Shown: one piece after another, positions 9,155 to 25,451 of the stretch
Position numbering within the stretch: position 1 is the first letter of the stretch
How the letters are laid out: the number at the start of each line of letters is the position of its first letter
Assembly (NCBI RefSeq): GCF_000364165.2
Contig: NZ_CP097810.1
Span: 1,574,130-1,614,129 of the forward strand
Reading direction: 5' to 3'
DNA length: 40,000 nucleotides
Source: Clostridium sp. MD294
GTDB lineage: Bacteria > Bacillota > Clostridia > Lachnospirales > Anaerotignaceae
Program-made: the position numbers and the translations under genes
Notes under the pieces: generated by a model
What the model was told of the DNA's origin: nothing
Database searches by the model: none
What the model saw: only the letters and a program-made list of their open reading frames with translations

Positions 9155-9799
9155 TTAAATGGGTACGAATTTTACATGTAATACTTTTCCAATAATGCGA
9201 ACACGATTTTGCTCTTCACCGGAGAAAATATAAGAAGAATAAGAAGGATTTTCAGGTTGTAGTACAAGAATATTTTCTTTTTTTAGTATACGCTTTAAAG
9301 TAGCGGTTTCGTCATCAATAGTAACAACAGCAATATCACCATTATTAACGTCAGATTGTTTGCGAACAAGAACAAGGTCGCCGTCATGTATGCGAGCGTT
9401 TATCATACTGTTGCCTTTTACACGAACATAAATGTATTCATAAGAGGGATTTAATTCAGAAGCATCAATTGCTTCGTAACCTTCTATGTAATTATCTGAA
9501 AAAGAGGGATTACCAGCATGAACAGAACCAACAATAGGCAATTTGATAATAGAATTGTTTGATTGATTTATATTGTGGGTGCTGTGAAGATAACCACAAG
9601 ATACTAATAAATCTTCATAATTTACAATAGAACTAGCAATACTTTGAAGCAAACGAGCAGAGGGAGGTCTGTCTAATTTTAAATTAAGATATTTAGAAAG
9701 ATAAGTACGGTTAAAACCAGTAATTTCTGCAAATTCCGTTGAAGTTTTGCCGTTCATTAACTTGATAAGTTGTTCTTTAAAAAGATGTTTTTGAAACAT
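9155..9799 (-). CDS. CI/LexA-like repressor (XRE-type HTH plus S24 autopeptidase domain)
   Basis: N-terminal HTH (TSTEFAEITGFNRTYLSKYLN), Ala-Gly cleavage site in VHAGNP, GNSM serine and ATLKR lysine of S24 peptidases. AAGGAG RBS. Divergent from the phage late operon. Confidence 0.85.
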   Translation of the reverse strand: MFQKHLFKEQLIKLMNGKTSTEFAEITGFNRTYLSKYLNLKLDRPPSARLLQSIASSIVNYEDLLVSCGYLHSTHNINQSNNSIIKLPIVGSVHAGNPSFSDNYIEGYEAIDASELNPSYEYIYVRVKGNSMINARIHDGDLVLVRKQSDVNNGDIAVVTIDDETATLKRILKKENILVLQPENPSYSSYIFSGEEQNRVRIIGKVLHVKFVPI

Positions 9800-9833
9800 G
9801 ATGAAGGGGAACTCCTTTCTGATATATTGATAA

Positions 9834-9849
9834 TCATATTATAATATGA
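9834..9849. promoter_or_regulatory. perfect 16-bp palindrome TCATATTATAATATGA (candidate operator)
   Basis: Self-complementary sequence located between the divergent repressor and late genes. It overlaps the minus-strand -10. Related half-sites (TAATATGA / TCATAT) recur at 9908-9930. Confidence 0.5.
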
Positions 9850-9866
9850 TAATGAAAAAAAGGCAA
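9838..9866 (-). promoter_or_regulatory. candidate repressor promoter (TTGCCT-17-TATAAT on the minus strand)
   Basis: Reverse complement of 9861-9866 is TTGCCT and of 9838-9843 is TATAAT, with a 17-nt spacer. About 40 nt upstream of the repressor ATG. Confidence 0.5.
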
Positions 9867-9886
9867 TTTATAGATGATGTTTTTTG

Positions 9887-9915
9887 TTGACAAAGAACAT
9901 ATGTGCTGATAATAT
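9887..9915 (+). promoter_or_regulatory. candidate rightward promoter (TTGACA-17-TAATAT) overlapped by inverted repeat GATAATA-N6-TATTATC (9908-9927)
   Basis: Consensus -35 hexamer, 17-nt spacer, and a -10 matching consensus at 5 of 6 positions. It points into the activator/terminase operon. Confidence 0.6.
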
Positions 9916-10005
9916 GAAAGTATTATCATATGTGAAATAAGGAGAGGGTTTATTCAAAGGAGTGTAGTATGATGTATTTGTGAAAAAAATTAACGATACA
10001 AAGAA

Positions 10006-10488
10006 ATGGGGAATGTTTTCATTATGAAAGAGAAGAAATTTCAAAATATAGAAAAAAAGGAAAGGGTTCAGATGAAAAAGAAGCTGTTCAGATGGGGGAG
10101 AACACTTGATTTTTGTCAAAGAAAACAAAGAGAGATTGATAAACTTCAAAAAATGGCAAAACAGTTTTTTATATTGGGAAAAAACGCACCATTTTTAGGA
10201 GAAGAAGTAGTCACTTTGGAAGAAGCAAAACAGATTTATGAAAGAGAAATCATAAAAATTGTGGAGTATATAGAGAAGGAGATGGAAGAATATTCAAAAA
10301 TGGGGAGATATATAGAACAGTTGGAATATGAGGAACAAATATTTTTAAAATTGAGATATGAAAAAGAGTATCAGTATAACTATATATCATTACAGCTTCA
10401 TAAAAGTAGAGCAAAATGCTTTAGGGACCATGATGTAATATTAGATAAGTTGATAGTGATATGCAAAGAACAAAAATTAGCCGCATAA
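10006..10488 (+). CDS. putative late-gene activator (Xpf/ArpU/RinA-like, sigma region-4-like C-terminus)
   Basis: Sits directly upstream of the small terminase gene, as xpf does in PBSX. The C-terminal EQIFLKLRYEKE..YISLQLHKSRAKCFR stretch resembles a region-4 HTH. The start could be ATG 10024. Confidence 0.4.
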   Translation: MGNVFIMKEKKFQNIEKKERVQMKKKLFRWGRTLDFCQRKQREIDKLQKMAKQFFILGKNAPFLGEEVVTLEEAKQIYEREIIKIVEYIEKEMEEYSKMGRYIEQLEYEEQIFLKLRYEKEYQYNYISLQLHKSRAKCFRDHDVILDKLIVICKEQKLAA

Positions 10489-10591
10489 ATAAAATAAAAA
10501 TGCTAGTGAAAATATAGAAAAAGTTGTAATAAAAAAATGAGACTTTTTGAGATTTTACAAAATATATTCTGTAGAGGAAAGGAGGAAAAGT

Positions 10592-10975
10592 ATGAAAAAA
10601 GGCTTGAGTAAAAATGAAATTGTGTTTTGCCGCCTGAAGGCAGAAGGGAAAACAGACTTGCAGGCGGCAGAAGGAGCAGGCTATGTAGAAGAATATGGTA
10701 AAAACTTGTTAAAAAAGGAATATATACAAAAAGAAATAAAAAGATTGTTAGAAGAAAAAAGGAAAGAAGAAATTGCTAATGATACAGATATATTGCAGTT
10801 TTTAACAAGTGTGATGAAAGGAGATGCCTATAAAGAAAAAAGTGATGCTGCTATAAAAGATAGAATGAAAGCAGCGGAGTTGTTGGGGAAAAGACAAAAT
10901 GTGTTTGAACAAATAGAGAATAAAAATGATGTAGTAATTATAGTAGATGATATAGTAAATAAAGGGAAGTGCTGA
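10592..10975 (+). CDS. terminase small subunit
   Basis: AGGAGG RBS then ATG at 10592. The N-terminal HTH-like LSKNEIVFCRLKAEGKTDLQAAEGAGY and KDRMKAAELLGK are typical of Terminase_2/XtmA-like proteins. Immediately precedes the large subunit. Confidence 0.7.
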   Translation: MKKGLSKNEIVFCRLKAEGKTDLQAAEGAGYVEEYGKNLLKKEYIQKEIKRLLEEKRKEEIANDTDILQFLTSVMKGDAYKEKSDAAIKDRMKAAELLGKRQNVFEQIENKNDVVIIVDDIVNKGKC

Positions 10976-10979
10976 AGGA

Positions 10980-12227
10980 ATGAAAGAAAATAAAATTCAG
11001 CTTTCAAAATTAATTGCGAAATCGTTTTATGAAGTACATAAAGATATTTGGTGTGAAAATAATACACATTATTGGTTAAAAGGAGGACGAGGCAGTACAA
11101 AATCATCATTTGTTTCATTAGAAATTGTGTTAGGTATCATGAAAGATAAACAAGCGAATGGTGTAGTACTTAGAAAAGTAGGGGTTCATATAAAAGATAG
11201 TGTGTTTGAGCAAATATGGTGGGCAATATCTGTTTTGGAAGTAGAACAACAATGGGAAGGGAAACAGTCATCACCGCTAGAAATAACATATATACCTACA
11301 GGACAAAAAATATTATTTAGGGGAGCAGATAATCCCAAAAAAATAAAATCCATAAAATGCCGAAAAGGATATGTAAAATATATATGGTATGAAGAAACAG
11401 ATGAATTTTCAGGAATGGCAGAGATAAGAAATATAAATCAGTCATTGATGAGAGGCGGTAAAAAATTTGTAGTATTTTATACCTATAACCCTCCAAAAAG
11501 TAAAATGAATTGGGTAAATAAAGAAGTTGAAAGAAAAAGAGAAGATAAATATATACATCATAGCACTTATGAAGAAGTACCCCAACAGTGGCTGGGAGAG
11601 CAATTTTTTATAGAAGCGGAGCATTTAAAACAGGTACAACCCGAAGTGTATCAACATGAATATATGGGAGAAGTGGTAGATACAGAAGGGACAGTGTTTC
11701 AAAATATAGTATTGAGAGAAATTACACAAGAGGAGATAGCTGCATTTGATAATGTGTCTAGAGGATTGGATTGGGGATATGCAATAGACCCACTGCATTA
11801 TACAGTAAATCACTATGATAAAACAAGGAAAAAACTTTATATATATTTTGAGATACAACAAAGGGGATTAAGTAATAGAAAAACATATGAAATGATAAAA
11901 CAAGAAAATAAACAAAATGGGGTAATTGTAGCAGATAGTGCAGAACCAAAATCTATAGCAGAAATGCAGTCGTATGGTTTGAGAATGATAGGAGCAAAAA
12001 AGGGACCTGATAGCGTAAACTATGGTATAAAATGGCTGCAAAGTCTGGAACAGATAGTAATAGATGAAAAAAGATGTCCTAATACAGCAAGAGAATTTTT
12101 TGAATATGAATTAGAGAGGGATATTGATAATAAATGGCTGTCAAAATTTCCAGATAAAAATAACCATGCAATAGATGCAGTGCGATATGCAAGGGAATAT
12201 GATATGCGAAATGTAAAAGTAACATAA
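10980..12227 (+). CDS. terminase large subunit (PBSX/XtmB family)
   Basis: 415 aa with a Walker A-like GGRGSTKS, WYEETDE (Walker B) and a C-terminal nuclease HAIDAVRYA motif. Confidence 0.9.
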   Translation: MKENKIQLSKLIAKSFYEVHKDIWCENNTHYWLKGGRGSTKSSFVSLEIVLGIMKDKQANGVVLRKVGVHIKDSVFEQIWWAISVLEVEQQWEGKQSSPLEITYIPTGQKILFRGADNPKKIKSIKCRKGYVKYIWYEETDEFSGMAEIRNINQSLMRGGKKFVVFYTYNPPKSKMNWVNKEVERKREDKYIHHSTYEEVPQQWLGEQFFIEAEHLKQVQPEVYQHEYMGEVVDTEGTVFQNIVLREITQEEIAAFDNVSRGLDWGYAIDPLHYTVNHYDKTRKKLYIYFEIQQRGLSNRKTYEMIKQENKQNGVIVADSAEPKSIAEMQSYGLRMIGAKKGPDSVNYGIKWLQSLEQIVIDEKRCPNTAREFFEYELERDIDNKWLSKFPDKNNHAIDAVRYAREYDMRNVKVT

Positions 12228-12244
12228 AAGGAAGGAGGGAAAAA

Positions 12245-13822
12245 ATGTATATCACAGAATTGGAATTGATGAAAGCGAAATTACAGTCAGAGAAAAAATG
12301 GAGCGAAAGTGAACTACTAAAAATGCTCATAGCAGAAGATGAAAATAGTAAAAAGAAAAAGGAAATGATAGAAGGAGAAAAATATTATTGCTGTGAGCAT
12401 AATGTGTTACAAAAGAACTTTTCAGTAAGACATTTTTCAGAAACATATAAAAATACACAAGGAGAAGAACAAGAAAGAATAAAATTACTTTCTAATCCAA
12501 ATAGAAGTAATCATCATGTAGTATGTCCTTTTCATCATATTTTGGTAGAACAGAAAGTTTCTTATTTGGTAGCAAAAGAGCCAAGCATATTAGTAAGGGG
12601 AAAAGAAATAACAGAATATGAAAGATATATGACAACAGTAGCAAATGAAGTATTTAATGGGGTGTTGTATGAGTGGCTTGTTGGGGCATCAAATAAAGGA
12701 ATAGAGTATGTTCATGTTTATTATGATAAAGAGGGCGTATTGCAGTATTGTGTTGTACCAGCGGAAGAATTGATTGTATTTTATAATTCTGTAAATAAAA
12801 AAGAAATAGAGCAAGTAATAAGATATTATCAATTTGTAGTAGTAGAAAATGGTAAAGAAAAAATAGTAAAAAAGGTAGAATGGTGGACAAAACAAGATGT
12901 CACATATTATATAGAAAAAGGAGATGGAAGCTATAAAAAAGAAGAACAACAAAAAATAGGACATTGGACAGTAGTAAAAGGAAAACAAGAACAGACAGAG
13001 AAAGAGCAACATGGTTGGGGGAGAGTACCATTTATAGCACTTCGAAATAATAGTAAAGAAATGTCTGATTTAAAAATGATAAAAGGCTTGGTAGATGCTT
13101 ATGATTTGATATGTAGTGAAGGAACAAATAGCTTGTTGGATTTGGTAGAACTGTATTGGGTAATAGCAGGATATGGAGGAGAAACAGCAAATGCCATAAC
13201 AAAAAAATTGCAAGTCAATAGAGCAGTACAAATTTCAGATGCTTCTGGAAAAGTAGAAACGAAACAGGTACATTTGCCTATAGAGGGTAGAATAGAATGG
13301 CTGAAATTGTTGAGAAAAGATATATTTCATTTTGGTATGGGAGTAGATACAGATAGTGAAAGATTGGGGAATGCACCAAGTGGAGTATCATTAAAATTTC
13401 AGTATGCTATGTTTAATTTAAAAATCAATGGCATAATACCTGAAATTAAAAAAGCATTGAAAGAGTTTTTTTGGTTTTTAATAGAAGATAATAATAGAAA
13501 AAATGGTACAGAATATGATGTAAATCAATTAGATTTTAGATTAAATCTAAATAGCATAACAGATGATATAGAAACAGTAAATATGATAACAGCATCAAAA
13601 GGTATTGTAAGCGAAAAAACACTTTTGGCACAGCACCCATTTGTACAAGATGTAAATAGTGAAATGGAAGCAATAAAACAAGAAAAAGAAAGGAATGAGA
13701 AATATCATGCAGATGGAGAAAATAGACAAACAAGAGCAATACAAAACAAAAGAACAAGAATACCAGCAGAAAATAGCACAGTTGAAAAAAGAAAAGGAAG
13801 AATTGAAACAGCAATACAATGA
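12245..13822 (+). CDS. portal protein (SPP1 gp6-like)
   Basis: 525 aa, positioned after the terminase, with an overall portal-like pattern. The charged C-terminal tail overlaps the next ORF by more than 100 nt. Confidence 0.8.
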   Translation: MYITELELMKAKLQSEKKWSESELLKMLIAEDENSKKKKEMIEGEKYYCCEHNVLQKNFSVRHFSETYKNTQGEEQERIKLLSNPNRSNHHVVCPFHHILVEQKVSYLVAKEPSILVRGKEITEYERYMTTVANEVFNGVLYEWLVGASNKGIEYVHVYYDKEGVLQYCVVPAEELIVFYNSVNKKEIEQVIRYYQFVVVENGKEKIVKKVEWWTKQDVTYYIEKGDGSYKKEEQQKIGHWTVVKGKQEQTEKEQHGWGRVPFIALRNNSKEMSDLKMIKGLVDAYDLICSEGTNSLLDLVELYWVIAGYGGETANAITKKLQVNRAVQISDASGKVETKQVHLPIEGRIEWLKLLRKDIFHFGMGVDTDSERLGNAPSGVSLKFQYAMFNLKINGIIPEIKKALKEFFWFLIEDNNRKNGTEYDVNQLDFRLNLNSITDDIETVNMITASKGIVSEKTLLAQHPFVQDVNSEMEAIKQEKERNEKYHADGENRQTRAIQNKRTRIPAENSTVEKRKGRIETAIQ

Positions 13823-14099
13823 AAAATTAAAACAGTATGTAGTACAGTCTGCATTAAAACAAGCAGGAGGAAGAAATACAAAAGCATTATTAGCATTGGT
13901 GGAATTGCAAGATATTGTTTTAAATGAAGATGGAACAGTAGAAGGATTGGATATAAAAAAATTAAAAAGAGAAGTCCCTTATTTATTTGAGGAAGAAAAC
14001 AAAAAAATAGAGGGAACGGGATATTATAGTACAAATAAAAAAGTAGATAAAAAAAGTGAAGCAGCAAAACAGTTTCAAACAGCATTGATGAGAAGATAA
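13707..14099 (+). CDS. scaffolding protein (GP20-like)
   Basis: Coiled-coil K/E/Q-rich ~130-aa protein between portal and capsid. The start is ambiguous (ATG 13695, 13707 or 13713). Confidence 0.55.
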   Translation: MQMEKIDKQEQYKTKEQEYQQKIAQLKKEKEELKQQYNEKLKQYVVQSALKQAGGRNTKALLALVELQDIVLNEDGTVEGLDIKKLKREVPYLFEEENKKIEGTGYYSTNKKVDKKSEAAKQFQTALMRR

Positions 14100-14115
14100 A
14101 AGGAGGAAAAATAGT

Positions 14116-15039
14116 ATGAGTATCAATACAATAGAATATGCAAAAATATTTATGGAAGCGTTAGATGAACAGCTAATAGCAGGAGCAACAAGTGGCTGGA
14201 TGGAAGAAAATAGTGGACAGATACAGTATACTGGAGGAAATGAGGTAAAAATACCAAAAATAGAATTGAATGGTCTGGGTACATATGATAGAGATAATGG
14301 ATTTGTGCAAGGTGCAGTAACATTGACATATGAAACAAAACAAATGACACAAGATAGAGGAAGAACATTTCAACTTGATGCGATAGATGTAGATGAAACA
14401 AATTTTGCATTGGTAGCAGGGAATGTAATGGGAGAATTTCAGAGAACAAAAGTAATACCAGAAATTGACGCATATCGCTATAGTAAAATAGCAGAATTGG
14501 CAACAGAAAGTAAAAAAGTGTCTTATTATCATGCTGAGAAAGATAGTATTGTACAAAAACTTTTAGAAGAAATCACAATAATAAAAGATATTGTAGGAGA
14601 TGAAAATGAAGTAATTGTAACAATGTCAACAAAAATAGCCAATTTGTTAGATATAGCAAGTAACCATATGTTGGAAAGTGGTGTTTTTGAACAGGGAAAA
14701 GTGGAATTGAAAGTTAAAAATATAGATGGAAGTCCTATTATAAGAGTGCCTTCTGCAAGATTAAAAACAAGCTATCAATTTTTTGATGGAGTAACAACAG
14801 GAGAAACAGAAGGTGGATTTGAAGCAAAAACAGATGCAAAAGATATAAATTGGATTATAGCAGTACGTCATGCGTTAATAGGAGTGTCTAAAACAGATGT
14901 AACAAGAATATTCGACCCATTAACAAATCAAAAAGCAAATGCTTGGAAAATTGACTATAGAAAATACCATGATTTGTGGATACCAGATAATGCAATAGAA
15001 GGAATATGGGTAAATATTGATGGACAAGCAACAGCATGA
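14116..15039 (+). CDS. major capsid protein (XkdG-like)
   Basis: 307 aa with a GGAGG RBS, positioned after the scaffold. The N-terminus MSINTIEYAKIF..LDEQL resembles PBSX-type capsid proteins. Confidence 0.8.
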   Translation: MSINTIEYAKIFMEALDEQLIAGATSGWMEENSGQIQYTGGNEVKIPKIELNGLGTYDRDNGFVQGAVTLTYETKQMTQDRGRTFQLDAIDVDETNFALVAGNVMGEFQRTKVIPEIDAYRYSKIAELATESKKVSYYHAEKDSIVQKLLEEITIIKDIVGDENEVIVTMSTKIANLLDIASNHMLESGVFEQGKVELKVKNIDGSPIIRVPSARLKTSYQFFDGVTTGETEGGFEAKTDAKDINWIIAVRHALIGVSKTDVTRIFDPLTNQKANAWKIDYRKYHDLWIPDNAIEGIWVNIDGQATA

Positions 15040-15055
15040 GCAGGTGATAAATAAA

Positions 15056-15487
15056 ATGAAACAAAATGATGAAAAAGAGCAATATTTTGTGACAGTAGAA
15101 GAAGTATATCAAAAAATAAAAGAGCTTAGAAAAAGTAAAGAAGAAATAAAAGAAAATGAAATAGAACAACAAACAGAGCAAGAAATAGAACAAATAGATG
15201 ATATATTGCTTTTTGCAAGTGAAAGAAGTATTGAAATGGTAAAGGGCTATTGTAATATAGAAAAAGTACCAAAAGAATTAAAGAATGTTTGTGTAGAAAT
15301 AACAATGTTGCTTTATGATAATGAGAATTATAGAGAAGAAGAAAAAAATGCTCGCTTGAAAAGTATAACAGAAGGTAATGTTTCGGTAAGCTACCAAAGT
15401 GAAAAAAGTAGTTGGAGAGAGCAAAAAAATGTTTTGTTGAGAACATTTTCAGAGGAATTAGATAAATTTAGAAATATGAAATGGTAG
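15056..15487 (+). CDS. head-tail connector (gp6-like / QLRG family)
   Basis: ATG 15056 after AGGTGA. The C-terminal LKSITEGNVSVSY motif is typical of Phage_connect_1 proteins. Confidence 0.6.
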   Translation: MKQNDEKEQYFVTVEEVYQKIKELRKSKEEIKENEIEQQTEQEIEQIDDILLFASERSIEMVKGYCNIEKVPKELKNVCVEITMLLYDNENYREEEKNARLKSITEGNVSVSYQSEKSSWREQKNVLLRTFSEELDKFRNMKW

Positions 15488-15524
15488 TAGTGAAATAGTA
15501 AGGGGAGGGAAAAGAGGTGAAAAT

Positions 15525-15884
15525 ATTATAAAAAGAACAAAAAGAGAAGTAGAGAAATTTTTTAATGAAAAATGTACTGTAACAGTATGGGAAAAACAAA
15601 AACAAAATTGGGGAGAAATATTGTTTGTAGAAAAAGAAGAAAAAAAACAAATAAAATGTAGATTGTGTAGAAGCCCTAAAATAGTAGTAAAAAATGGTGT
15701 TTTACCTGCAAAAATACTATATGATGCAGTATTGTTGTTTTGTAAAGAAGATGTGATAAAGGCAGGAAGTAATATAGAAATAGAGAAGGAGGGAGGGGAA
15801 AATATTGTATTTAAAAGTGTAGGAGAAATGGTAAGTTATAGTACACACAATGAAATTGCATTAAAAAGAGAAGATATAGCATAA
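15525..15884 (+). CDS. head-closure / head-tail adaptor-like protein (non-canonical start inferred)
   Basis: The frame is open from 15480. There is no ATG, GTG or TTG before 15621, but coding-like sequence (IIKRTKREVEKFFNEKCTVTVWEK...) begins at ATT 15525, 5 nt after GAGGTG. Confidence 0.4.
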   Translation: MIKRTKREVEKFFNEKCTVTVWEKQKQNWGEILFVEKEEKKQIKCRLCRSPKIVVKNGVLPAKILYDAVLLFCKEDVIKAGSNIEIEKEGGENIVFKSVGEMVSYSTHNEIALKREDIA

Positions 15885-15901
15885 AAAAGGGGGGAAAGTG
15901 A

Positions 15902-16342
15902 GTGGAGAAAGGGATATTACAAATTATAAAAGAAATTGTAATAAAAACAATAGCAGAACAATTTGAACAAAGTGAAGTATATGGGGAAGAAGTACCTCAA
16001 AATGGAAGTAAAAATTGTTTTGGAGTAAGTGTAAAAAGTGTAGAACAGAAACCACTTTTAAAGGGTAGACGAGAACAATGGATAACAATGAATGTAGAGT
16101 ATAGAAATGATGTAGAAAAAAGAGAAAAAGCAGAAAGTATAGAAAAAGTAGAAATACTTTATGATGTGTTGTCATTGATAGGGGAAGGGAAAAATAAATT
16201 TTTTGCAGTAAAAATGCAGCATAATATGACAGAAAAAGGATTTCAATTTGAAGTAACTTACTATGTGCAAATTATGCCTGTTGTAACACAAAGAAAAATG
16301 GAAAGATTAGAATATAATGGAAGTCAAGTAGTAGGATATTAA
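15902..16342 (+). CDS. tail completion / head-tail joining protein (XkdI/J position)
   Basis: 146 aa with a GTG start after GGGGGGAAAG. Its position between connector and sheath genes is the only support for the function. Confidence 0.45.
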   Translation: MEKGILQIIKEIVIKTIAEQFEQSEVYGEEVPQNGSKNCFGVSVKSVEQKPLLKGRREQWITMNVEYRNDVEKREKAESIEKVEILYDVLSLIGEGKNKFFAVKMQHNMTEKGFQFEVTYYVQIMPVVTQRKMERLEYNGSQVVGY

Positions 16343-16361
16343 AAAATAAGGAGGAAAAGGA

Positions 16362-16535
16362 GTGCAAGAAGAAAGAAATGTGTATGAAAAAGAACAGTTT
16401 TTGAAAAGTAAAAATAAAAAGTGGAATAAAGATGTTGTACAAGCAGTATTAAAAGAAGGGAAACAGTATAGTAAAAAAGAAGCCGAGAGATTAGTCAAAA
16501 TGTATTTAGAGGGAAAAAGAGAAAGGAGAAGATGA
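16362..16535 (+). CDS. small hypothetical phage protein (57 aa, below the track cutoff)
   Basis: GTG at 16362 lies 6 nt after AAGGAGGAAAAGGA. It fills the gap before the sheath gene, and its stop at 16533-16535 is 6 nt before the sheath ATG. Confidence 0.4.
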   Translation: MQEERNVYEKEQFLKSKNKKWNKDVVQAVLKEGKQYSKKEAERLVKMYLEGKRERRR

Positions 16536-16541
16536 AAGCGT

Positions 16542-17849
16542 ATGGCATTAGGAGGAGGTACTTATTTAGTACAAAATAAAATATTACCTGGAGCATATAT
16601 CAATTTTGTATCACAACCGAGAGCGATGGGAACATTGGGGGAAAGAGGTACTGTGTGCATGGCACTAGAATTAGATTGGGGAAAAAGTGGCATGATGACA
16701 GTAGAGGCAGAAGAATTTCAAACAGAAGCACAAGATATATTTGGGTATGATTATACCCATGAAAAAATGCAACCACTGAGAGAATTGTTTTTGTATGCAA
16801 AAAAGGCATTGATTTATCGTTGTAATAGTGGAGAAAAGGCAAGTGTAAAAGTAGGAGAATGTACTGTACAGGCAAAATGTGGCGGAACAAGAGGAAATGA
16901 TATAAAAATTGTAATTGCAAAAAATGTAGATGATGAAACAGCATTTGATGTAAGGACATATTTAGATTTGGTATTGCAAGATACACAAACAGTAAAAACA
17001 ATAGAAGAATTGAATGAAAATACTTATGTAGTATTTCAGGGAACAGGGGCATTGCAGGCAAATGCAGGAGTCAATTTAACAGGTGGAACAAATAAAGAAG
17101 TAACAGGAAATGATTATGCTGATTTTTTGGAAGAAGCAGAAAAAGAGAATTTCAATGTGTTGGCTTATGCAGGAGAAGATGAAGTAACAAAAGGATTGTT
17201 TACAGCTTTTACAAAAAGATTAAGAAATGAAGAAGGCGTAAAATTTGTAACAGTGTTGTTTCAGTATACAAAAGCAGATTTTGAAGGCGTTATTTCTGTA
17301 ACAAATGAAACAGAAGAACAGAAAACAGGTCTGGTGTATTGGACAGCAGGAGCAGAAGCAGGGGCAGAAGTAAATGAAAGTATAACAAATAAAAAATATA
17401 ATGGGGAATATAGCGTTAAAGCAAAATATAAAAAATCAAAATTTATAGAAGGATTGCAAAATGGGGAATTTTTGTATTATGAAGATGGCGATGATATTAG
17501 AGTACTGAGAGATATTAATACATTTACGTCATTTGAAAGTAATAAAAATAGTGATTTTTCAAGTAATAGAGTAATACGAGTGTTAGATGCTATAGCGAAT
17601 GATGTAGCAAGAATATTTAGTCAGTATTATTTGGGAAAACAAAGTAATAATGATAATGGAAGAAATCTGTTAAAAGCGGAATTGATACAGTATCATGAAC
17701 AATTAGAAGGAATAGAAGCAATAGAGGGTTTTGAACCAGAAGATATTACAATTATGCAGGGAATAGAAAAACAAGATGTTGTAGTGTATGAGAAAGTAAA
17801 ACCAATAGATGCTATGGAAAAATTGTATATGAAAGTAGAAGTTATTTAA
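16542..17849 (+). CDS. contractile tail sheath protein (XkdK-like)
   Basis: 435 aa with the characteristic N-terminus GGGTYLVQNKILPGAYINFVS. Followed by the tube gene. Confidence 0.9.
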   Translation: MALGGGTYLVQNKILPGAYINFVSQPRAMGTLGERGTVCMALELDWGKSGMMTVEAEEFQTEAQDIFGYDYTHEKMQPLRELFLYAKKALIYRCNSGEKASVKVGECTVQAKCGGTRGNDIKIVIAKNVDDETAFDVRTYLDLVLQDTQTVKTIEELNENTYVVFQGTGALQANAGVNLTGGTNKEVTGNDYADFLEEAEKENFNVLAYAGEDEVTKGLFTAFTKRLRNEEGVKFVTVLFQYTKADFEGVISVTNETEEQKTGLVYWTAGAEAGAEVNESITNKKYNGEYSVKAKYKKSKFIEGLQNGEFLYYEDGDDIRVLRDINTFTSFESNKNSDFSSNRVIRVLDAIANDVARIFSQYYLGKQSNNDNGRNLLKAELIQYHEQLEGIEAIEGFEPEDITIMQGIEKQDVVVYEKVKPIDAMEKLYMKVEVI

Positions 17850-17869
17850 TTAGGTGAGGGGGTAATAAA

Positions 17870-18325
17870 ATGGCGTATTTGAGAGCAAAAGATACAATAA
17901 ATGGAGCATTGGGTACTTGCTTTGCGTTAATCAATGGAAATCGATATGAAATTATGCAGGCGAAAAATGTAGAGGCAAAAGTAGAGAAAACAAAATCAGA
18001 AATACCAATATTGGGGCTGACATCAAAACAGCATAAAGCTGGAGGCTGGAAAGGTACTGGAACAATGGAGGTGTATTATGTTTCAAGTTTGTTTAGAAAG
18101 GTAATGTTAGAGTATATGAAAAATGGGGTGGATACTTATTTTGAATTGCTTGTAACAAATGAAGACCCTACAAGTGAAACAGGGAAACAAACAGTACTTT
18201 TAAAAGGAGTTAATATTGATAGTATGTTTATTACAAAATTAGATGTAGATAAAGAAGCATTAGATGAAGTATTGACATTTACATTTAATGATGCAGATTT
18301 GCTAGAAGCGTTTGAAGAATTGTAA
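17870..18325 (+). CDS. tail tube protein (XkdM-like)
   Basis: 151 aa, immediately after the sheath gene. The AKDTINGALGTCFALINGNRYE pattern is typical of XkdM-type tubes. Confidence 0.8.
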   Translation: MAYLRAKDTINGALGTCFALINGNRYEIMQAKNVEAKVEKTKSEIPILGLTSKQHKAGGWKGTGTMEVYYVSSLFRKVMLEYMKNGVDTYFELLVTNEDPTSETGKQTVLLKGVNIDSMFITKLDVDKEALDEVLTFTFNDADLLEAFEEL

Positions 18326-18402
18326 AAAAAAGAAAATAAAACAGTCCTCCATCTTATTAGATGGGGGACGTATATTATATAAATAAAAAGGAGTGTAAGG
18401 GA

Positions 18403-18747
18403 ATGCAGGCATATTATAAACAAAATAGAAAAGAAATAAAAAATAAAAAAATAGTAATTTCTGAGAGATTGGTAGATAAACAAGGAAATGTAGTTGTGTG
18501 GGAAATAAGACCATTAAGCCAAAAAGAAAATGAAAATATATTAAAAAAATGTAGAGCAATGAAAGAAGAAGGAAAACAAAATTTGTATGAGGTAATGGTA
18601 TTGGTAGAAAGTGTTGTGTTTCCAGATTTAAGTAATGTAGAACTGCAAAATAAATACCATGTGATAGGAAAAGAAGCATTACTTTTAGAAATGTTGACAG
18701 CAGGAGAATATGAAAAGCTGAAAAATGTGGTGGAAGAAGTGCAGTAA
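18403..18747 (+). CDS. XkdN-like tail assembly chaperone, paralog 1 (no frameshift extension, no tape measure downstream)
   Basis: ATG 18403 after AAGGAG. Shares the W.I..L..KE block and the C-terminal EMLT.GEY..L block with 20409-20777. Confidence 0.7.
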   Translation: MQAYYKQNRKEIKNKKIVISERLVDKQGNVVVWEIRPLSQKENENILKKCRAMKEEGKQNLYEVMVLVESVVFPDLSNVELQNKYHVIGKEALLLEMLTAGEYEKLKNVVEEVQ

Positions 18748-18763
18748 AAGGGGAGGAAAAAAT

Positions 18764-19426
18764 ATGTATCGATTTTATATGAAACAAAATGGAGAACAAA
18801 TATTGCTGCCAGTAGCACCATCAGAATTGATAACAAATGTAGAAGGAGAAAGTGAGAGAGTAGAGTTAGTAGATATAGGAGAGGGAAGTATATTAAAAGA
18901 TATAGGATTGAGAAGAATTTCTTTTACAGTGTTGCTGCCAGCAGTACAGTATAGTTTTGTACAAACAGAAGGTGTATTTCAGCCACCTATATTTTTTTTA
19001 AATCAGTTTAGACAGTATAAAATGAGTAAAAAACCAGTAAGTTTGATTGTGTTTCGAAAGTTAGCAGATGGTACAGAATTGTTTAGTGGAAATATAGATG
19101 TTTCTTTTGAAAGATATACAGTACTGGAAAGGGGAGGAGAACAAGGTGATTTTTGGGTAGAAATCAATTTGAAAGAATATAGGAAAATCACATCTGCAAC
19201 ATATAAAATAGAGCAAAAAGAGGGACAAACAGTATTAGAAGAATATGGAGTAAAAAGAGAAGGAAAAGAAATTCCAAATACTTATACAGTAAAAAAGGGA
19301 GATAGTTTGTGGAAAATTGCACAAACAATGCTAAATGATGGTAGTCGCTATAAAGAAATTGCAGAAAAAAATAATATTGTAAATCCCAATAAAATACAGA
19401 TAGGACAAATACTGCGTTTGGGGTGA
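18764..19426 (+). CDS. LysM-domain tail/baseplate protein (XkdP-like)
   Basis: ATG 18764 after GGGGAGG. C-terminal LysM (YTVKKGDSLWKIAQTML..IQIGQILRL). Confidence 0.8.
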   Translation: MYRFYMKQNGEQILLPVAPSELITNVEGESERVELVDIGEGSILKDIGLRRISFTVLLPAVQYSFVQTEGVFQPPIFFLNQFRQYKMSKKPVSLIVFRKLADGTELFSGNIDVSFERYTVLERGGEQGDFWVEINLKEYRKITSATYKIEQKEGQTVLEEYGVKREGKEIPNTYTVKKGDSLWKIAQTMLNDGSRYKEIAEKNNIVNPNKIQIGQILRLG

Positions 19427-20406
19427 TAAAAATGAAAATTAAAATGCTTGTAAAAAATAATAATAAAATGTATGATGCAACAAATTTGTTAGAAGGAGAG
19501 GTTGTTGTAGAGAAAAGTATTATAGGGACTTGTGGAAAAATGACTTGTTCTATTATAAGAGATGGCGTAACACAGTTTGTAGAAGGAAATCAAATACAAT
19601 TTTATGCAGAAGATAAATTATTTTTTTCAGGGTGGATAATGAAAAAAAGTAGAACTTCTAAACAAATTATAGAAGTAACGGCATATGACCAGTTTTTTTA
19701 TTTGGTACAAAATAAAGATACCTATGTGTATTATAACAAAAAAGCATCAGAACTCATACAAATGATAGCGAATGATTATGGCTTAGAAATGGGAGAAATT
19801 TGTAATACAATGTGGCAAATTCCGCAAAGAATAGAAGAAGGTCAAACACTTTGGGATATGATTAATACAGCACTAAATTTAACAAAAAAGGAGATAGGGA
19901 AAGAATATTTTTTTTATGATGAAGGGGGAAAATTAACACTAACAGAAAAAAGTGATATGGTAACAAATGAAGTGTTGCAGTGTGATGGAAGTATAGAAGA
20001 TTATATTTATATAACAGATATATCAGAAGATACTTATAATGGTGTACAGCTGTTTCAGGCGGGAAGATTGGAAACAGAAAAATTGTCTTATAGAGAAGAA
20101 AAAGAAGAAGAAATTAAAAAATGGGGCAGAATATTGTACTATCAAAGAGTAGACCATAGATTAACACAGTATGATTTAAGAGCAATAGGAAATACAATTT
20201 TGTCACAAAAATGCCGTGTAAAAAAGACATTGCTATTAAAACAATTTTCAGAAAAATTAATATTAATACCAGGCCAGTCTATTTATATAGAATTACCAGA
20301 ATTGGCTGAAATTAGTTTAAAAGGTATGTTTGTAATAGAAAAAGGAATTTATCATTTTTTTAATGGAGGATATAAAGCAGATTTGAATATAAGAATGGAG
20401 GAGTAA
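19423..20406 (+). CDS. XkdQ/YqbQ-like baseplate hub protein (gpD/late control D-like)
   Basis: 327 aa with a GTGA stop-start overlap with the LysM gene (alternative ATG at 19432). Size and position match xkdQ. Confidence 0.7.
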   Translation: MIKMKIKMLVKNNNKMYDATNLLEGEVVVEKSIIGTCGKMTCSIIRDGVTQFVEGNQIQFYAEDKLFFSGWIMKKSRTSKQIIEVTAYDQFFYLVQNKDTYVYYNKKASELIQMIANDYGLEMGEICNTMWQIPQRIEEGQTLWDMINTALNLTKKEIGKEYFFYDEGGKLTLTEKSDMVTNEVLQCDGSIEDYIYITDISEDTYNGVQLFQAGRLETEKLSYREEKEEEIKKWGRILYYQRVDHRLTQYDLRAIGNTILSQKCRVKKTLLLKQFSEKLILIPGQSIYIELPELAEISLKGMFVIEKGIYHFFNGGYKADLNIRMEE

Positions 20407-20408
20407 TT

Positions 20409-20777
20409 ATGATAGAAGAAAAATATTTGCTAGAAGAAAAAGAAATTGAAGTATCTAAAAGATTTATAGGAGAAAATGGAAAACCTCTGAAATGGAGAAT
20501 AAAAGCATTAAAAGAAAAAGAACATCAAAAAATAAAACAAACAAAAACAACAGAAGCAATAGAGCAATATTGGGGAAAATTGTGTGCTAGTTGTGTTGTA
20601 ATACCAAATTTGAATGATAGAGAACTTTTAAAAAGTTATGGCTGTGATAAAGCAGATGAAGTATTGAAAGAAATGCTTACAATGGGAGAATATATGATAC
20701 TTTTGAAAGCAGTAAGAGAACAAAATTGCTTTGAACAAAGAGAACAAAAAATAAAAAATGATATAAAAAAGCAATAA
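20409..20777 (+). CDS. XkdN-like tail assembly chaperone, paralog 2 (zero-frame product)
   Basis: 122 aa, paralogous to 18403-18747. It ends 3 codons after an A_AAA_AAG slippery heptamer. Confidence 0.7.
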   Translation: MIEEKYLLEEKEIEVSKRFIGENGKPLKWRIKALKEKEHQKIKQTKTTEAIEQYWGKLCASCVVIPNLNDRELLKSYGCDKADEVLKEMLTMGEYMILLKAVREQNCFEQREQKIKNDIKKQ

Positions 20778-20890
20778 AGGAGGGTAGAGCAGAAACAGAT
20801 TATGCTGCTTATGCTCTCCGACATTATCATATATTGCCAAGTCAATATTTTCGTATGGATTTCGAACAGAAAATGTTTATAAAAAGTGTA
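20765..20890 (+). other. predicted -1 programmed ribosomal frameshift site (A_AAA_AAG, 20765-20771) with a 39-codon -1 extension to the stop at 20888-20890
   Basis: The heptamer is in the correct phase with the 20409 frame. The -1 frame is open from 20762 and encodes AIKEGRAETDYAAYALRHYHILPSQYFRMDFEQKMFIKV. The arrangement mirrors the gpG/gpGT chaperone pair upstream of tape-measure genes. Confidence 0.6.
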
Positions 20891-20913
20891 ATAGATTTGG
20901 AACTGGAGGAGAG

Positions 20914-22206
20914 GTGATGATAATGTTTTCTTTTTATAAAAAACAGTTTTTAAAAAATGAAAAAGGAAATGATTTTTTTTGGCGTTGGTATGAACAGGAA
21001 GAAATGCAAAAGAAAAGTATATTGTGGCGACAACAATATCTGTATGAAAATAAACAACAGTCGCTGTATAAAATGGTTGGAGAGAAAGAAAATAGTATAA
21101 AAAATAATAAAGAGAAAAAAAGTGTTGAAAAAGAAATAAAAAAGAAACAAAAACAGGAAAATAGTATATTTAAAAAACAAGAAATATTTGAAAAACAAAA
21201 AACAAAAAGTATGTTTGATGAAATACAGTATCAAAAAGAATATGAAGAATATAAACAAACAGAAGAACAAAAAAGACAACAACAACAGAAAAAAAGTGAT
21301 ATAGAAAAACAATACCAAATTGAAAAAGAAAAACAAATAAAATATCAGATACAAAATAAATATGAAATAGAAAAACAGTACCAAATAGAACAACAAAAAC
21401 AATATCAAAAACAAAAACAGCAACGATACCAACAACAAAAACAAAATATACAACAAAAACAGCAAGAATATGAACAACAAATTCAAAAACAACAACAAAA
21501 AAGAAAACAAACACAACAGCAAAATGAAAATAAAAGAGAACAAAAAAGACAAGAATTACAACAATATAAAATAGATAAAAAAAATCAAAAACAAAGTGAA
21601 AGTGTATGGGAAATAGAAAAACAAAATAGAGAATATAACAAAGAGATAGAAAAACAGAAATACTTTGATATAAAAGAAATATTTGATAAAAAAGGAAGCG
21701 AAAATAAAAAAGAGAAACAGAATAAAGTAGTGTTAAAAGAAATAAAAAAAGGTGATATTTGGGGATATGGAAATAGCATTTTAAAAAAAGAAAAAAAAGA
21801 AAGTGTTTTTAATTTAGGAAAACAAATATTACAACAAAAAGAATATAGTGTAAAAAATAATATAGAAAAAATAAAACAAAAGAATTTAGAACAAAAACAA
21901 AATAAAAAACAATGGCAAAAAGAAGTGTGGCCTGGTTCAGAACAAAAAAGAGATATAAAAAGTGTGTGGGAAAAAGAAAATAAAAATATAGAACAAATAG
22001 AACAATATAATAAAAAAATAAATACAGAAATAATACAAAATGTTGTAAAAAATAGTTTAAAACAAAAAGAAGAGCAAAAACAGCAAAAACAACAAGTGCA
22101 GCAAAAGCAACAAAATGTTGATATAAATACATTGTTTTTACATATGACAGAAAAGCTGTTAGAACAAAGAGAGAGAAGTTTGAGAGCAAGTCAAATGAAA
22201 ATATGA
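20914..22206 (+). CDS. K/Q/E-rich low-complexity protein in the tape-measure position (putative atypical tape measure)
   Basis: A 430-codon open frame in AT-rich DNA, with a GGAGGAGAGG RBS (ATG at 20917). It lies directly after the chaperone/frameshift pair and before the XkdR-like gene. I recognise no sequence motif. Confidence 0.45.
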   Translation: MMIMFSFYKKQFLKNEKGNDFFWRWYEQEEMQKKSILWRQQYLYENKQQSLYKMVGEKENSIKNNKEKKSVEKEIKKKQKQENSIFKKQEIFEKQKTKSMFDEIQYQKEYEEYKQTEEQKRQQQQKKSDIEKQYQIEKEKQIKYQIQNKYEIEKQYQIEQQKQYQKQKQQRYQQQKQNIQQKQQEYEQQIQKQQQKRKQTQQQNENKREQKRQELQQYKIDKKNQKQSESVWEIEKQNREYNKEIEKQKYFDIKEIFDKKGSENKKEKQNKVVLKEIKKGDIWGYGNSILKKEKKESVFNLGKQILQQKEYSVKNNIEKIKQKNLEQKQNKKQWQKEVWPGSEQKRDIKSVWEKENKNIEQIEQYNKKINTEIIQNVVKNSLKQKEEQKQQKQQVQQKQQNVDINTLFLHMTEKLLEQRERSLRASQMKI

Positions 22207-22221
22207 AATGGGGAAAAAAGT

Positions 22222-22578
22222 ATGTTAGAAGCAGTAAAATTGTTGGCATATGATGTATTGCAGCAAGAAAATATAGCAGATATTTGTTATGGTACTGTAA
22301 CAGCAACAGAACCACTAAAAATAATATTGGAGCAAAAATTAGAATTAACAGAAAATTTTTTGATATTGTCACAAAATGTAATGAAACATTATGAAAGCTT
22401 TTATATGAGGAAAAAAGATAGTAATGAACAGTGGGAACACTATGAAATCATAATTGAAAAGGAACTAAAAAAGGGAGAAAGAGTCATATTGATGAAAATG
22501 ACAGGAGGACAAAGATATGTCGTATTGGATAGAGTAGGAGAGGAGATGACAGAAAATGAAACTGACACCACAGTCTGA
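22222..22578 (+). CDS. XkdR-like baseplate protein (DUF2577-like)
   Basis: 118 aa. The GTVTATEPLKIILEQKLELTENFLIL pattern is typical of DUF2577. Confidence 0.7.
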   Translation: MLEAVKLLAYDVLQQENIADICYGTVTATEPLKIILEQKLELTENFLILSQNVMKHYESFYMRKKDSNEQWEHYEIIIEKELKKGERVILMKMTGGQRYVVLDRVGEEMTENETDTTV

Positions 22579-22963
22579 AATAGAAGTAAATAGTAATGTG
22601 GTTATACAAAAAATACCTACATTAACTTATAGAGTGCAAAAAGAAAAAGAAATTGTTTCTGGTACAGTAGATGAATTGGAAGCAATGAAACAGGCAGTGT
22701 TTAAAATATTGTTTACAGAAAGATACCAGTATGAAATTTATAATTGGGAGTATGGTATGGAATTGAAAGATTTGTTTGGTAGAGCAAAAAGTTATGTGAT
22801 ACCAGAAATGAAAAAGAGAATTGAGGAGGCATTGCTGGCGGATGATAGAATAAAAGCAGTAACAGATTTTCAATTTGGAGGGAAAAAAGGAGAATTGGAA
22901 GTAAAATTTAAAGTACATACTATATTTGGAACACTAGAAATAGAAAGGACGGTTGATATTTAA
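22556..22963 (+). CDS. XkdS-like baseplate protein (DUF2634 / gpW-like)
   Basis: 135 aa that overlaps the previous gene. The TYRV...GTVDELEAMKQAVFKILFTERYQYEIY pattern is typical of DUF2634. Confidence 0.7.
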   Translation: MKLTPQSEIEVNSNVVIQKIPTLTYRVQKEKEIVSGTVDELEAMKQAVFKILFTERYQYEIYNWEYGMELKDLFGRAKSYVIPEMKKRIEEALLADDRIKAVTDFQFGGKKGELEVKFKVHTIFGTLEIERTVDI

Positions 22964-24033
22964 TGTATGAGAGTTATGAGGAATTGATGGAGAGAAAGCT
23001 AGAACAAGTAAATCAAAAAAGAGATAGAAGACAGGGAAGTATTATATTTGATGCGATTGCACCAAATGCAGCAGAAACAGCTATATTTTATGCAGATTTA
23101 AAAATGCTGGAAAATCGTACTTATGGAGATAGTGCAACAGAACAAGATTTAACAAGAAGATGTATGGAAAGAGGAGTTTTTAGAAAAGAAGGTACAAAAG
23201 CCACTTTTTTAGGAAAATTTATAGATAGAAATGAAAGAGCTTGTAATGTACCTATTGGTATGAGATTTAATTTGGAAGAATTAAATTATATTGTAATAGA
23301 AAAGACAGCAGTAGAAGGAGAGTATATATTAGAGTGCGAAACAGTAGGAGAAACAGGTAATCAGTATTTAGGGGATTTAATACCCATTACATATTTAGAG
23401 GGACTGGCAAAAGGAGAATTGATAGAACTGCTTACAGAAGGAGAAGATGAAGAAACAGATGAAAGTCTGAGAAAAAGATACTATAGTAGTTTTAATACAG
23501 ATACATTTGGGGGAAATATAGAAGACTATAAAGTAAAAGTAATGGCATTAAAAGGAGTAGGAGGAGTAAAAGTAACACCAGTTTGGAATGGAGGAGGAAC
23601 AGTAAAACTGACAATAGTAGACGGAAATTTCAATGCACCAATAGAAGGAGAAATTGCAAAAATACAACAAGTAATAGACCCTCAAAAAAGGGGATTGGGC
23701 TATGGTATTGCACCAATAGGACATAAAGTAACAGTAGAACCAGCAAAAGAAGTACAATGCTATATAGAAATGACATTGTTATTAAAAGATGGAACAAATA
23801 AAACAAAAGTAACAGAAGAAATTACAAATTCTATAGAAGATTATTTTTCAAATTTGAGAAAACAATGGGCAGATATGGAATATTTAACAGTACGTATTAG
23901 TTATTTGGAAGCGAGGGCATTGGACGCAGAAGGAGTTATTGATGTGCAATATACTAAAATAAATGACCGTGCACAAAATTATATATTAGAATATAATGAA
24001 ATTCCGTTTTTGGGAAGTGTGGTGACAGAATGA
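22963..24033 (+). CDS. baseplate J-like protein (XkdT-like)
   Basis: 356 aa with a TAATG overlap with the previous gene. Size and position match gpJ/gp47-family proteins. Confidence 0.85.
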   Translation: MYESYEELMERKLEQVNQKRDRRQGSIIFDAIAPNAAETAIFYADLKMLENRTYGDSATEQDLTRRCMERGVFRKEGTKATFLGKFIDRNERACNVPIGMRFNLEELNYIVIEKTAVEGEYILECETVGETGNQYLGDLIPITYLEGLAKGELIELLTEGEDEETDESLRKRYYSSFNTDTFGGNIEDYKVKVMALKGVGGVKVTPVWNGGGTVKLTIVDGNFNAPIEGEIAKIQQVIDPQKRGLGYGIAPIGHKVTVEPAKEVQCYIEMTLLLKDGTNKTKVTEEITNSIEDYFSNLRKQWADMEYLTVRISYLEARALDAEGVIDVQYTKINDRAQNYILEYNEIPFLGSVVTE

Positions 24034-24599
24034 AACAAATTTATGAAAAATATTTGCCACCATTTGTAAAAGACACAAGAGAATTTCAAATGCTTTCAGA
24101 AATAGAAGGAAATATATTGACAGAAGAAAAACAGGCAAAACAATATTTAGAAGATGACCAATGGATTGTAACAGCAACAGAAAGAGGATTAAAAAGAAGA
24201 GCAAAATTATTAAATATTGTAAGAGAGCAAAATGAAAGTTTAGAAGATTTTAGACAAAGAATACTTTTTTTGTGGAACCATCATAAACCTTATACTTATT
24301 TTCATTTGTTAGATTGGTTGGAAGGAATATGTAATAAAGATAATGTAACAAATGTAGTAGTAGATATGCAGCATGATTTGTATTATTTACATATAGAAAT
24401 TAGATTGATTAAAAAACAATTGCAAGAGGAAATAAAAAAGACAGTAAGAAAAATGATACCTGCCAATATCGTGTTGGAGGTAACATTGCGATATAATTTG
24501 TATGGAGAAATAAAACCGTATACTTATGGAGATTTAAAACGAAAACAGTTCCGATATATTGATATAAGAGAAGAAGATATTAGATATTGGGAAATGTAA
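24030..24599 (+). CDS. XkdU-like tail protein (DUF2313/YmfQ-like)
   Basis: 189 aa with an ATGA overlap. The YLPPFVKDTREFQML..E start is typical of DUF2313. It is the last gene of the structural operon. Confidence 0.75.
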   Translation: MKQIYEKYLPPFVKDTREFQMLSEIEGNILTEEKQAKQYLEDDQWIVTATERGLKRRAKLLNIVREQNESLEDFRQRILFLWNHHKPYTYFHLLDWLEGICNKDNVTNVVVDMQHDLYYLHIEIRLIKKQLQEEIKKTVRKMIPANIVLEVTLRYNLYGEIKPYTYGDLKRKQFRYIDIREEDIRYWEM

Positions 24600-24632
24600 A
24601 TAATAAAATATGTTTCAAAATTTAATGTGTCA

Positions 24633-24661
24633 GCGTGTCGATAAAATCGACACGTTTTTTT
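24633..24661 (+). terminator. rho-independent terminator; its hairpin is a third copy of hairpin H1 of the multi-hairpin element
   Basis: cgtgtcga-taaaa-tcgacacg plus T7. 24631-24654 matches 8915-8938 at 22 of 24 positions in direct orientation. Confidence 0.85.
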
Positions 24662-24761
24662 ATGAAAAAAATAGATTTTTTTGTATATTTACCAATTTTA
24701 TATCAGTAATAAAATGAAAAATAGGGGAAAAATGATAAATGAAGTTTATTGTATATTGTGA

Positions 24762-25451
<690 letters not shown>

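Follow-up and report, generated by a model that had tools for sequence, protein, structure and literature searches.

The window analysed here, a stretch of 40,000 nucleotides of Clostridium sp. MD294 (contig NZ_CP097810.1, positions 1,574,130 to 1,614,129, forward strand), contains a PBSX-like (myovirus-type) particle cluster, in which one open reading frame (ORF) encodes a protein dominated by K, Q and E. We propose, with a probability of roughly 0.7, that this K/Q/E-rich ORF is the tape-measure equivalent of a particle cluster that is chromosomally fixed in a Lachnospiraceae genus. The longest reading of the ORF starts from GTG 20914 and gives 430 residues up to 22206 on the plus strand. The likeliest start is ATG 20917, located 7 nt past the GGAGG (20905–20909) of a Shine-Dalgarno region (GGAGGAGAGG, 20905–20914, +) read from the sequence, giving a protein of 429 residues (20917–22206, +), while ATG 20923 is an alternative start that aligns with the start of several orthologues. 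The protein consists of 21% K, 20% Q, 13% E and 7% N. K, Q and E together make up 54% of the residues, so that the description in an earlier note on this DNA, which put them at well over half, is right as to the majority and slightly overstated as to its size. The residue runs and aromatic islands quoted in that note are all found in the translation, and the hydrophobic, Gly-rich or lytic segments whose absence it remarked on are indeed missing. In particular, G and P account for only 2% of the residues, and no hydrophobic segment occurs in the protein (maximum 19-residue Kyte-Doolittle mean 0.16), which is hydrophilic throughout with 24% K+R and a net charge of +36.

The ORF is coding rather than fortuitous. 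Its DNA contains 58.7% A and 23% GC, and at this base composition stop codons are expected at 0.094 per codon (one per 10.6 codons) and the probability of 430 codons without a stop is 3e-19, which argues that the ORF is not a chance reading. Additionally, the longest open run averages 43 codons and reaches at most 107 in 2000 shuffles of the ORF DNA, and the other two sense frames contain 35 and 46 stops across the ORF. The earlier view that a real gene lies here is borne out by this probability and by a frame that stays open across orthologues.

The gene upstream of the ORF, TAC2 (20409–20777, +), encodes an XkdN-like tail assembly chaperone (TAC) as a G-like product (PF08890 E 2e-22, phrog_389). 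A -1 slippery heptamer, A_AAA_AAG (20765–20771, +, read from the sequence), lies in phase with TAC2 near its end and is followed by a T-like -1 extension of 48 codons (20771–20917, +), the translation of which is open to a TGA at 20915–20917 that overlaps ATG 20917 of the ORF. The stop of this extension had previously been placed at 20888, 27 nt off. The proposed operon coupling stands, with the ORF lying behind a frameshifting chaperone gene through a stop/start overlap. A_AAA_AA(G/C/A) is present at the same place in 17 of 17 element loci, including loci at 39–52% GC, and the TAC2 extension is 40–82% identical among all orthologous loci. The retention of both slippery site and extension in all 17 loci, across genera and GC contents, speaks for a functioning chaperone/substrate pair. 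A GGAGGG string 6–11 nt 3' of the heptamer (window 20777–20785) is also conserved across all genera; it may simply code for the conserved (K/E)-E-G of the -1 product, or may influence frameshifting.

Phages lambda (gpG/gpGT and gpH) and P2 (gpE/E+E' and gpT) combine a -1 slippery heptamer in the chaperone gene, an extended chaperone product and a coupled tape-measure gene that follows. The present locus shares with them the heptamer near the end of TAC2, the extended product, and an ORF that comes next and is translationally coupled. Unlike in lambda and P2, an additional paralogue without extension, TAC1, stands beside the tube gene. The likeness is claimed for the gene arrangement only, not for the sequences of lambda gpH or P2 gpT. 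Judged by sequence, TAC2, its extension and the ORF are the classical G/GT-then-tape-measure arrangement.

The displaced slot of the proposed tape measure in the tail cluster

The cluster (9155–25451) is headed by a LexA-like repressor gene (9155–9799, -), which is followed by genes for the small and large terminase, an SPP1-type portal and the capsid, and then by the tail terminator (15902–16342, +; PF20765 E 3.6e-16). The tail sheath (16542–17849, +) and tail tube (17870–18325, +) are recognised jointly by PF04984, PF17482 and PF09393. Next come TAC1, the other XkdN-like chaperone (18404–18747, start approximate, +; PF08890 E 5e-25), an XkdP-like LysM tail protein (18764–19426, +; PF01476, phrog_380) and an XkdQ/YqbQ-like baseplate hub protein (19423–20406, +; PF24032 E 2e-79), which leads to TAC2 and the K/Q/E-rich ORF. 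Downstream of the ORF lie an XkdR-like DUF2577 protein (22222–22578, +; PF10844 E 1.5e-23), the XkdS/gp25-like sheath initiator (22556–22963, +; PF10934 E 1.4e-29), an XkdT-like baseplate J protein (22963–24033, +; PF04865 E 2.5e-55), a Mu gp48-like protein (from 24030) and a resolvase (from 24801).

The order sheath, tube, TAC1, XkdP, XkdQ, TAC2, ORF, XkdR, XkdS, XkdT is distinct from the canonical PBSX-like order XkdN, tape measure, XkdP, XkdQ, XkdR that is seen in phiCT453A, phiC2 and Abouo. The other ORFs between 9155 and 25451 are all assigned, and no second tape-measure candidate is found in the cluster. The earlier note had placed the ORF in the tape-measure position; this is accurate in that the ORF is the sole candidate and is downstream of a chaperone gene, and inaccurate in that it is displaced behind XkdP and XkdQ instead of lying between the tube-adjacent chaperone and XkdP. 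TAC1 and TAC2 are paralogues with 31% identity, of which only TAC2 has an extension. A frameshift of TAC1 into XkdP was considered and rejected, as there is no room for it and XkdP has its own ribosome-binding site and ATG (18764). In a locus of another genus (g9, locus L067), the order is tube, XkdP, XkdQ, a single TAC and then the protein at the slot under discussion (hereafter slot protein), with TAC1 absent. Because the displacement is seen here with a single TAC, the displaced pair of chaperone and putative tape measure is independent of TAC1.

With the K/Q/E-rich protein as query, orthologues are detected in seven of the nine other genomes of the genus, and searches with XkdP and the C-terminal profile reveal the locus in all nine. 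The full gene order, including the resolvase, is intact in 9 of 9 loci examined, and in the genus loci that were inspected the XkdU-like gene is not followed by a tail-fibre gene. The cluster occupies one chromosomal site in the genus, because a nudix/xerD/ttcA flank recurs in its loci wherever the fetched stretch extends there. The rearranged order is also present in at least six other genera of the family, and the structural genes in other genera are 36–77% identical. Searched with a 60-position profile of the C-terminus, 48 of 113 family genomes, representing 8 of 23 genera, each yield a single copy. The reading frame is uninterrupted in almost all of these copies, with two matches carrying one in-frame stop and two truncated. 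Among 1.84 billion proteins the same profile retrieves 79 clusters with full-length members of ~160–396 residues. In 78 of these clusters, the aligned region either reaches the C-terminus or stops a few residues short of it; the exception (P0036) is a repeat protein and was judged a false positive. One relative has a database entry, as a hypothetical protein from 'Lachnospiraceae bacterium 46-61', and scans of nine relatives against Pfam, PHROGs and NCBIfam return nothing meaningful. Taken together, the cluster (window 9155–25451; loci L011–L017 and L057–L067) has the appearance of a domesticated particle cluster that is passed on vertically.

Slot proteins vary in both length and chemistry. 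Those of other genera comprise 207–271 residues and are E/A/G/R/K-rich at 39–52% GC. The g9 slot protein (L067:6449-7513, -; locus GC 33%) has 354 residues, is Y/N/S/D-rich with only 12% K+Q+E and a net charge of -32, and keeps the C-terminal motif (..NYNDIFDVLEEQLYRE..); it represents another low-complexity expansion, of a different chemistry, in a further low-GC lineage. By clade, the length is ~205–242 residues in g10 and 349–433 residues in most g1 species.

Two insertions interrupt the otherwise conserved operon. In one genome (G007, L057:10417-12622), the tube gene is partly duplicated and 1.8 kb without a sense-strand ORF separates tube from TAC1, and in another (G009, L058:6965-8389), three tandem repeats of ~290 nt lie between YqbQ and TAC2. 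The genome of MD294 itself carries two more XkdP-like genes, G000:C1:2348345-2349013 (40% identical) and 1805573-1806211 (31%). The former (L068) lies amid phage tail and head genes and probably belongs to an ordinary prophage that encodes a tape measure of its own.

Conserved ends and a variable spacer

Within the K/Q/E-rich protein, conservation is concentrated at the two ends and in short aromatic islands. The N-terminal aromatic helix (residues 1–40; 20917–21036, +) contains Y7, L12, F20, F21, W22, W24, Y25 and W37, all invariant in alignment A1, and this FFWxWY helix is amphipathic and conserved within the genus. It is followed at a distance by a genus-specific K/Q/E(Y/I) expansion (residues ~105–225; 21229–21591, +; 36% Q, 21% K, 13% E) and by a spacer (21592–22023, +) with islands of the short (V/I)(W/F) type, in which W231, Y249, W282, F298 and W351 form invariant columns in A1. 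The C-terminal module (residues 370–429; 22024–22203, +; alignments A1 and A2) reads E..IQN.V..SL ... D-I-N-T-L-F-L-H-M-T-E-K-L-L-E-Q-R-E-R-S and is followed by a basic tail. Its genus-invariant block is E..IQN.V..SL ... T-L-F-L-H-x-T-E-K-L-L-E-Q-R-E-R-S-L, and its motif is D-[IV]-[DN]-x-[LI]-[FM]-x-x-[ML]-T-[EK]-K-L-x-E.

AlphaFold2, run on the monomer with an eight-sequence alignment, predicts six helices that cover ~86% of the residues. The N-terminal ones span residues 2–17 and 19–58, and a single helix spans residues 64–259 (196 residues, ~29 nm), with block-mean confidence (pLDDT) of 82–93 over residues 111–220 and low confidence outside this block, for example at 261–347. For a 211-residue relative, confident prediction is limited to the N-terminal helix and to a beta-hairpin plus helix at the C-terminus. 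The earlier suggestion of a minimalist coiled coil is not upheld, as the predicted monomer is a single long helix and no dominant 3.5-residue peak is present in the heptad analysis (weak peaks at 3.65, 2.85 and 7.15). Foldseek searches against BFVD and the ESM Atlas return only generic long-helix or coiled-coil look-alikes. ER/K single alpha-helix domains are helical spacers of eukaryotes with dense i,i+4 (and i,i+3) pairs of E with K or R. Like them, the present protein contains an extended hydrophilic and charged segment that is predicted to form a single uninterrupted helix of ~29 nm and may serve as a spacer. Unlike them, its core is Q-rich (36%) with Y and I recurring regularly, and residues 105–225 have only 0.05 opposite-charge i,i+4 pairs per residue, so that the single alpha-helix signature is absent from this region.

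The gene evolves faster than its neighbours. Within the genus, the sheath, tube, YqbQ and baseplate J proteins are 81–99% identical with ratios of nonsynonymous to synonymous substitution (dN/dS) of 0.02–0.16, whereas the K/Q/E-rich protein is 43–79% identical with a dN/dS of 0.18–0.45 at the same dS. Another set of figures for the genus puts the neighbouring genes at 80–98% identity and this gene at 30–70%. Since this ratio is reached at the dS of the neighbours, we interpret it as relaxed but real purifying selection on a coding gene. Across 18 loci, locus GC correlates with the share of GARP residues (rho +0.96), with FYMINK residues (rho -0.83) and with protein length (rho -0.85), correlations that are descriptive only because the lineages are related. 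The net charge of the orthologues extends from -32 to +36, and several are acidic.

In line with a spacer that changes by repeat turnover, the DNA of the expansion is made up of imperfect tandem repeats (periods 18, 24, 30, 42 and 66 nt), ~60 of its residues are missing from two species of the genus, and the block has no counterpart in the relatives of 207–271 residues. One relative (P0050, 395 residues) contains four tandem units of ~33 residues with two aromatic islands each (..QQVFVEKGQMEKDKWIQP.FVKKEQEE..), which explain its excess over the sister proteins P0046 and P0080 (262 and 287 residues). Length change by tandem units is a known mode of tape-measure evolution. Because the spacer is weakly constrained, its composition follows the mutational bias of the genome, which has 30% GC and a coding strand rich in purines. 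From these sequence patterns we conclude that the K/Q/E composition reflects mutational bias plus repeat expansion and not a selected polycationic chemistry or a new function. Within the genus, the spacer would have grown as A-rich units of 6–22 codons underwent slippage or duplication, and the K/Q/E block would then be a lineage-specific helical extension.

Comparison with canonical tape measures and alternative roles

The reference tape measures of PBSX-like elements are B. subtilis XkdO, phiCT453A gp46 (667 residues), phiC2 gp20 (762 residues) and Abouo gp20 (684 residues). Like them, the K/Q/E-rich ORF follows an XkdN-like chaperone gene amid homologues of XkdP, XkdQ, XkdR, XkdS and XkdT, and its product has a motif of a similar type ~10–15 residues from the end, D-[IL]-[DN]-x-hydrophobic-hydrophobic-x-x-hydrophobic-T/x-E/x-K-L-x-E/D. 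Unlike them, it is at most half as long, has no detectable homology beyond this C-terminal motif, shows extreme K/Q/E low complexity, ends in a basic tail where canonical tape measures end in ...SAEGVH, and is encoded after XkdP/XkdQ. The small size, already pointed out in the earlier note, is confirmed against the canonical tape measures of same-family prophages, which lie upstream of XkdP and have 562–903 residues. The latter end in ...I-x-V-D-F-x-N-...-D-I-D-G-V-[VM]-x-K-F-x-x-x-L-x-E-A-...-A-E-E-V-H, and the slot proteins in ...[IV]-x-I-x-I-G-Q-V-x-x-x-A-D-V-D-x-I-M-x-x-L-T-K-K-L-W-E, with D-I-N-T-L-F-L-H-M-T-E-K-L-L-E in the window. An hhalign comparison of full alignment A1 with two single phage tape measures is not significant, and a 15-column hint in it at the C-terminus of the phiC2 tape measure prompted the test of the motif. 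The last 70 residues of a relative give 12 weak tblastn matches among 50,697 phage records, of which 11 (E 0.9) fall in tape-measure genes of PBSX-like Brevibacillus myophages, the match in phage Abouo stopping 16 codons short of the tape-measure stop; the C-terminal 83 residues of the window's protein have no tblastn match in phages. In a search of the element ORFs with a hidden Markov model of the canonical C-terminus, slot proteins rank first, second and fourth (E 0.08–0.67). In hhalign, the slot C-terminal profile aligns with C-termini of canonical Lachnospiraceae prophage tape measures across 26 columns that sit at equivalent positions (P 6.9e-4). These sequence comparisons make homology to the C-terminus of canonical tape measures probable.

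Several points weigh against a tape-measure role. Scans of Pfam, PHROGs, NCBIfam and PDB chains give no significant tape-measure match for the K/Q/E-rich protein, an absence that counts for little because the annotated phiCT453A tape measure likewise has no Pfam match. The link to canonical tape measures concerns a short motif with marginal statistics, and the hhalign comparison of the C-termini was run after this motif had already been seen. Matches of the canonical C-terminal model to the element ORFs are weak overall (E 0.08–2), and the slot profile retrieves no long tape measure among the 1.84 billion proteins. The ORF stands behind XkdP/XkdQ and not in the canonical tape-measure place. 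The centre of the 211-residue relative is predicted to be disordered and the g9 form is Y/N/S/D-rich, neither of which suits a rigid helical ruler. Finally, the proteins of 207–271 residues, if helical, correspond to tails of ~31–41 nm, shorter than any contractile tail known to us.

The predicted disorder would be at home in a related explanation, according to which the protein is a tape-measure-derived assembly primer or lumen plug and not a ruler, and its spacer is neutral, freely drifting filler. The C-terminus would nucleate the tube on the hub and the N-terminus would meet the chaperone or terminator, with tail length being set otherwise or only loosely. We consider this unlikely, yet it accommodates much of the variation described above, including a dN/dS 3- to 10-fold above that of neighbouring genes, a composition that tracks GC (GARP rho +0.96), a length that increases as GC drops, and a spacer chemistry that is K/Q/E, E/A/G/R or Y/N/S/D depending on the genus. 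Freely drifting filler is harder to reconcile with a length that is fairly stable within clades (g10 ~205–242 residues; most g1 349–433 residues) and with aromatic islands of the spacer that are invariant in the genus. Moreover, we know of no ruler-independent setting of length in such tails.

The earlier note had also raised the idea of a polycationic or polar cargo or DNA-binding protein in the tail lumen. As considered here, such a protein, which might also be a pilot protein, would be delivered through the tube to a target cell and would play no part in length control. The net charge of +36, the 24% K+R that raises the pI, the hydrophilic character throughout and the adjoining baseplate genes would all fit such a protein. 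The charge, however, ranges from -32 to +36 among orthologues while composition tracks genome GC, and we reject the polycation/DNA-binding reading because the charge is not conserved. No DNA-binding or effector domain appears in the library scans, the strict pairing with a frameshifting TAC is a tape-measure signature, and the cluster would be left without any tape measure, all of which makes cargo improbable. That the gene is decaying within the remnant of a defective prophage, or that the ORF is spurious, is more improbable still. Extreme composition and raised dN/dS would be expected in that case, and the earlier note saw no adjoining tail-fibre, lysis or integrase genes; the check made here covered the gene that follows the XkdU-like gene, which is a resolvase. 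Decay is nonetheless at odds with the probability of the open frame (P 3e-19), with a frame open in nearly all of 48 genomes from 8 genera, with a dN/dS below 1, with strong purification of the neighbouring structural genes (dN/dS 0.02–0.16) and with the conserved frameshift site.

Taken together, the frameshifting TAC2 upstream, the status as sole candidate and the conserved ends support, in the main, the tape-measure reading that the earlier note had offered. By analogy with lambda gpG/gpGT-gpH and P2 gpE/E'-gpT, we propose that TAC2 and its frameshift product TAC2-T would hold the K/Q/E-rich protein, the C-terminus of which would dock onto the XkdQ/XkdP/XkdR hub. Along the protein, the tube would polymerise first and the sheath after it, and the terminator would cap the tail at the end of the protein. 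At 1.5 Å per residue, the 429 residues predict a tail of ~64 nm and the 207-residue forms one of ~31 nm; the ruler role, the docking and these tail lengths are inferred.

Significance for the ruler model and for the family

Low complexity in a tape measure is not new in itself. PolyX tracts are reported in 95.5% of tape measures (Moreno-Rodriguez et al. 2026, PMC13585406), and A, G, S or T account for ~80% of these tracts. As in those proteins, low-complexity or repeat tracts fill much of the K/Q/E-rich protein and are the evident source of its length variation, whereas its bias is to K, Q and E (with N) and extends over most of the protein instead of short tracts. What is unusual is the combination of a size at most half that of canonical tape measures, the K/Q/E bias, a displaced gene with a duplicated chaperone, and a cluster that is fixed in the genus and found family-wide. 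It is conceivable, though we hold this with considerable doubt, that the slot proteins constitute an undescribed family of mini tape measures (~190–430 residues) with only their ends conserved, belonging to a vertically inherited PBSX-like cluster in ~40% of sampled family genomes. In any case they are a protein family so far unannotated, and because current profile libraries miss it, annotation pipelines would call such clusters devoid of a tape measure.

A 2026 survey of capsid-packaged gut DNA described an element of Faecalibacterium resembling a gene transfer agent (GTA) as the second Gram-positive case after PBSX and reported no element from Lachnospiraceae (PMC12946183). Kept at a single chromosomal site within the genus and common among related gut Lachnospiraceae, the host cluster is a candidate for a domesticated particle of an abundant gut family, whether PBSX-like, tailocin-like or GTA-like.

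The tape measure is the textbook molecular ruler, and what its sequence needs beyond length is poorly defined. In this cluster, conserved tail parts are combined with a ruler candidate that keeps only its ends while its spacer varies twofold in length and changes its chemistry completely, so that the ruler model can be tested by comparison. Should the ruler rule hold, these elements would have the shortest contractile tails known (~30–65 nm), and, if the tape-measure reading is true, the sister genera would form a natural series relating the number of residues and the conformation of the spacer, helix or extended chain, to tail length.

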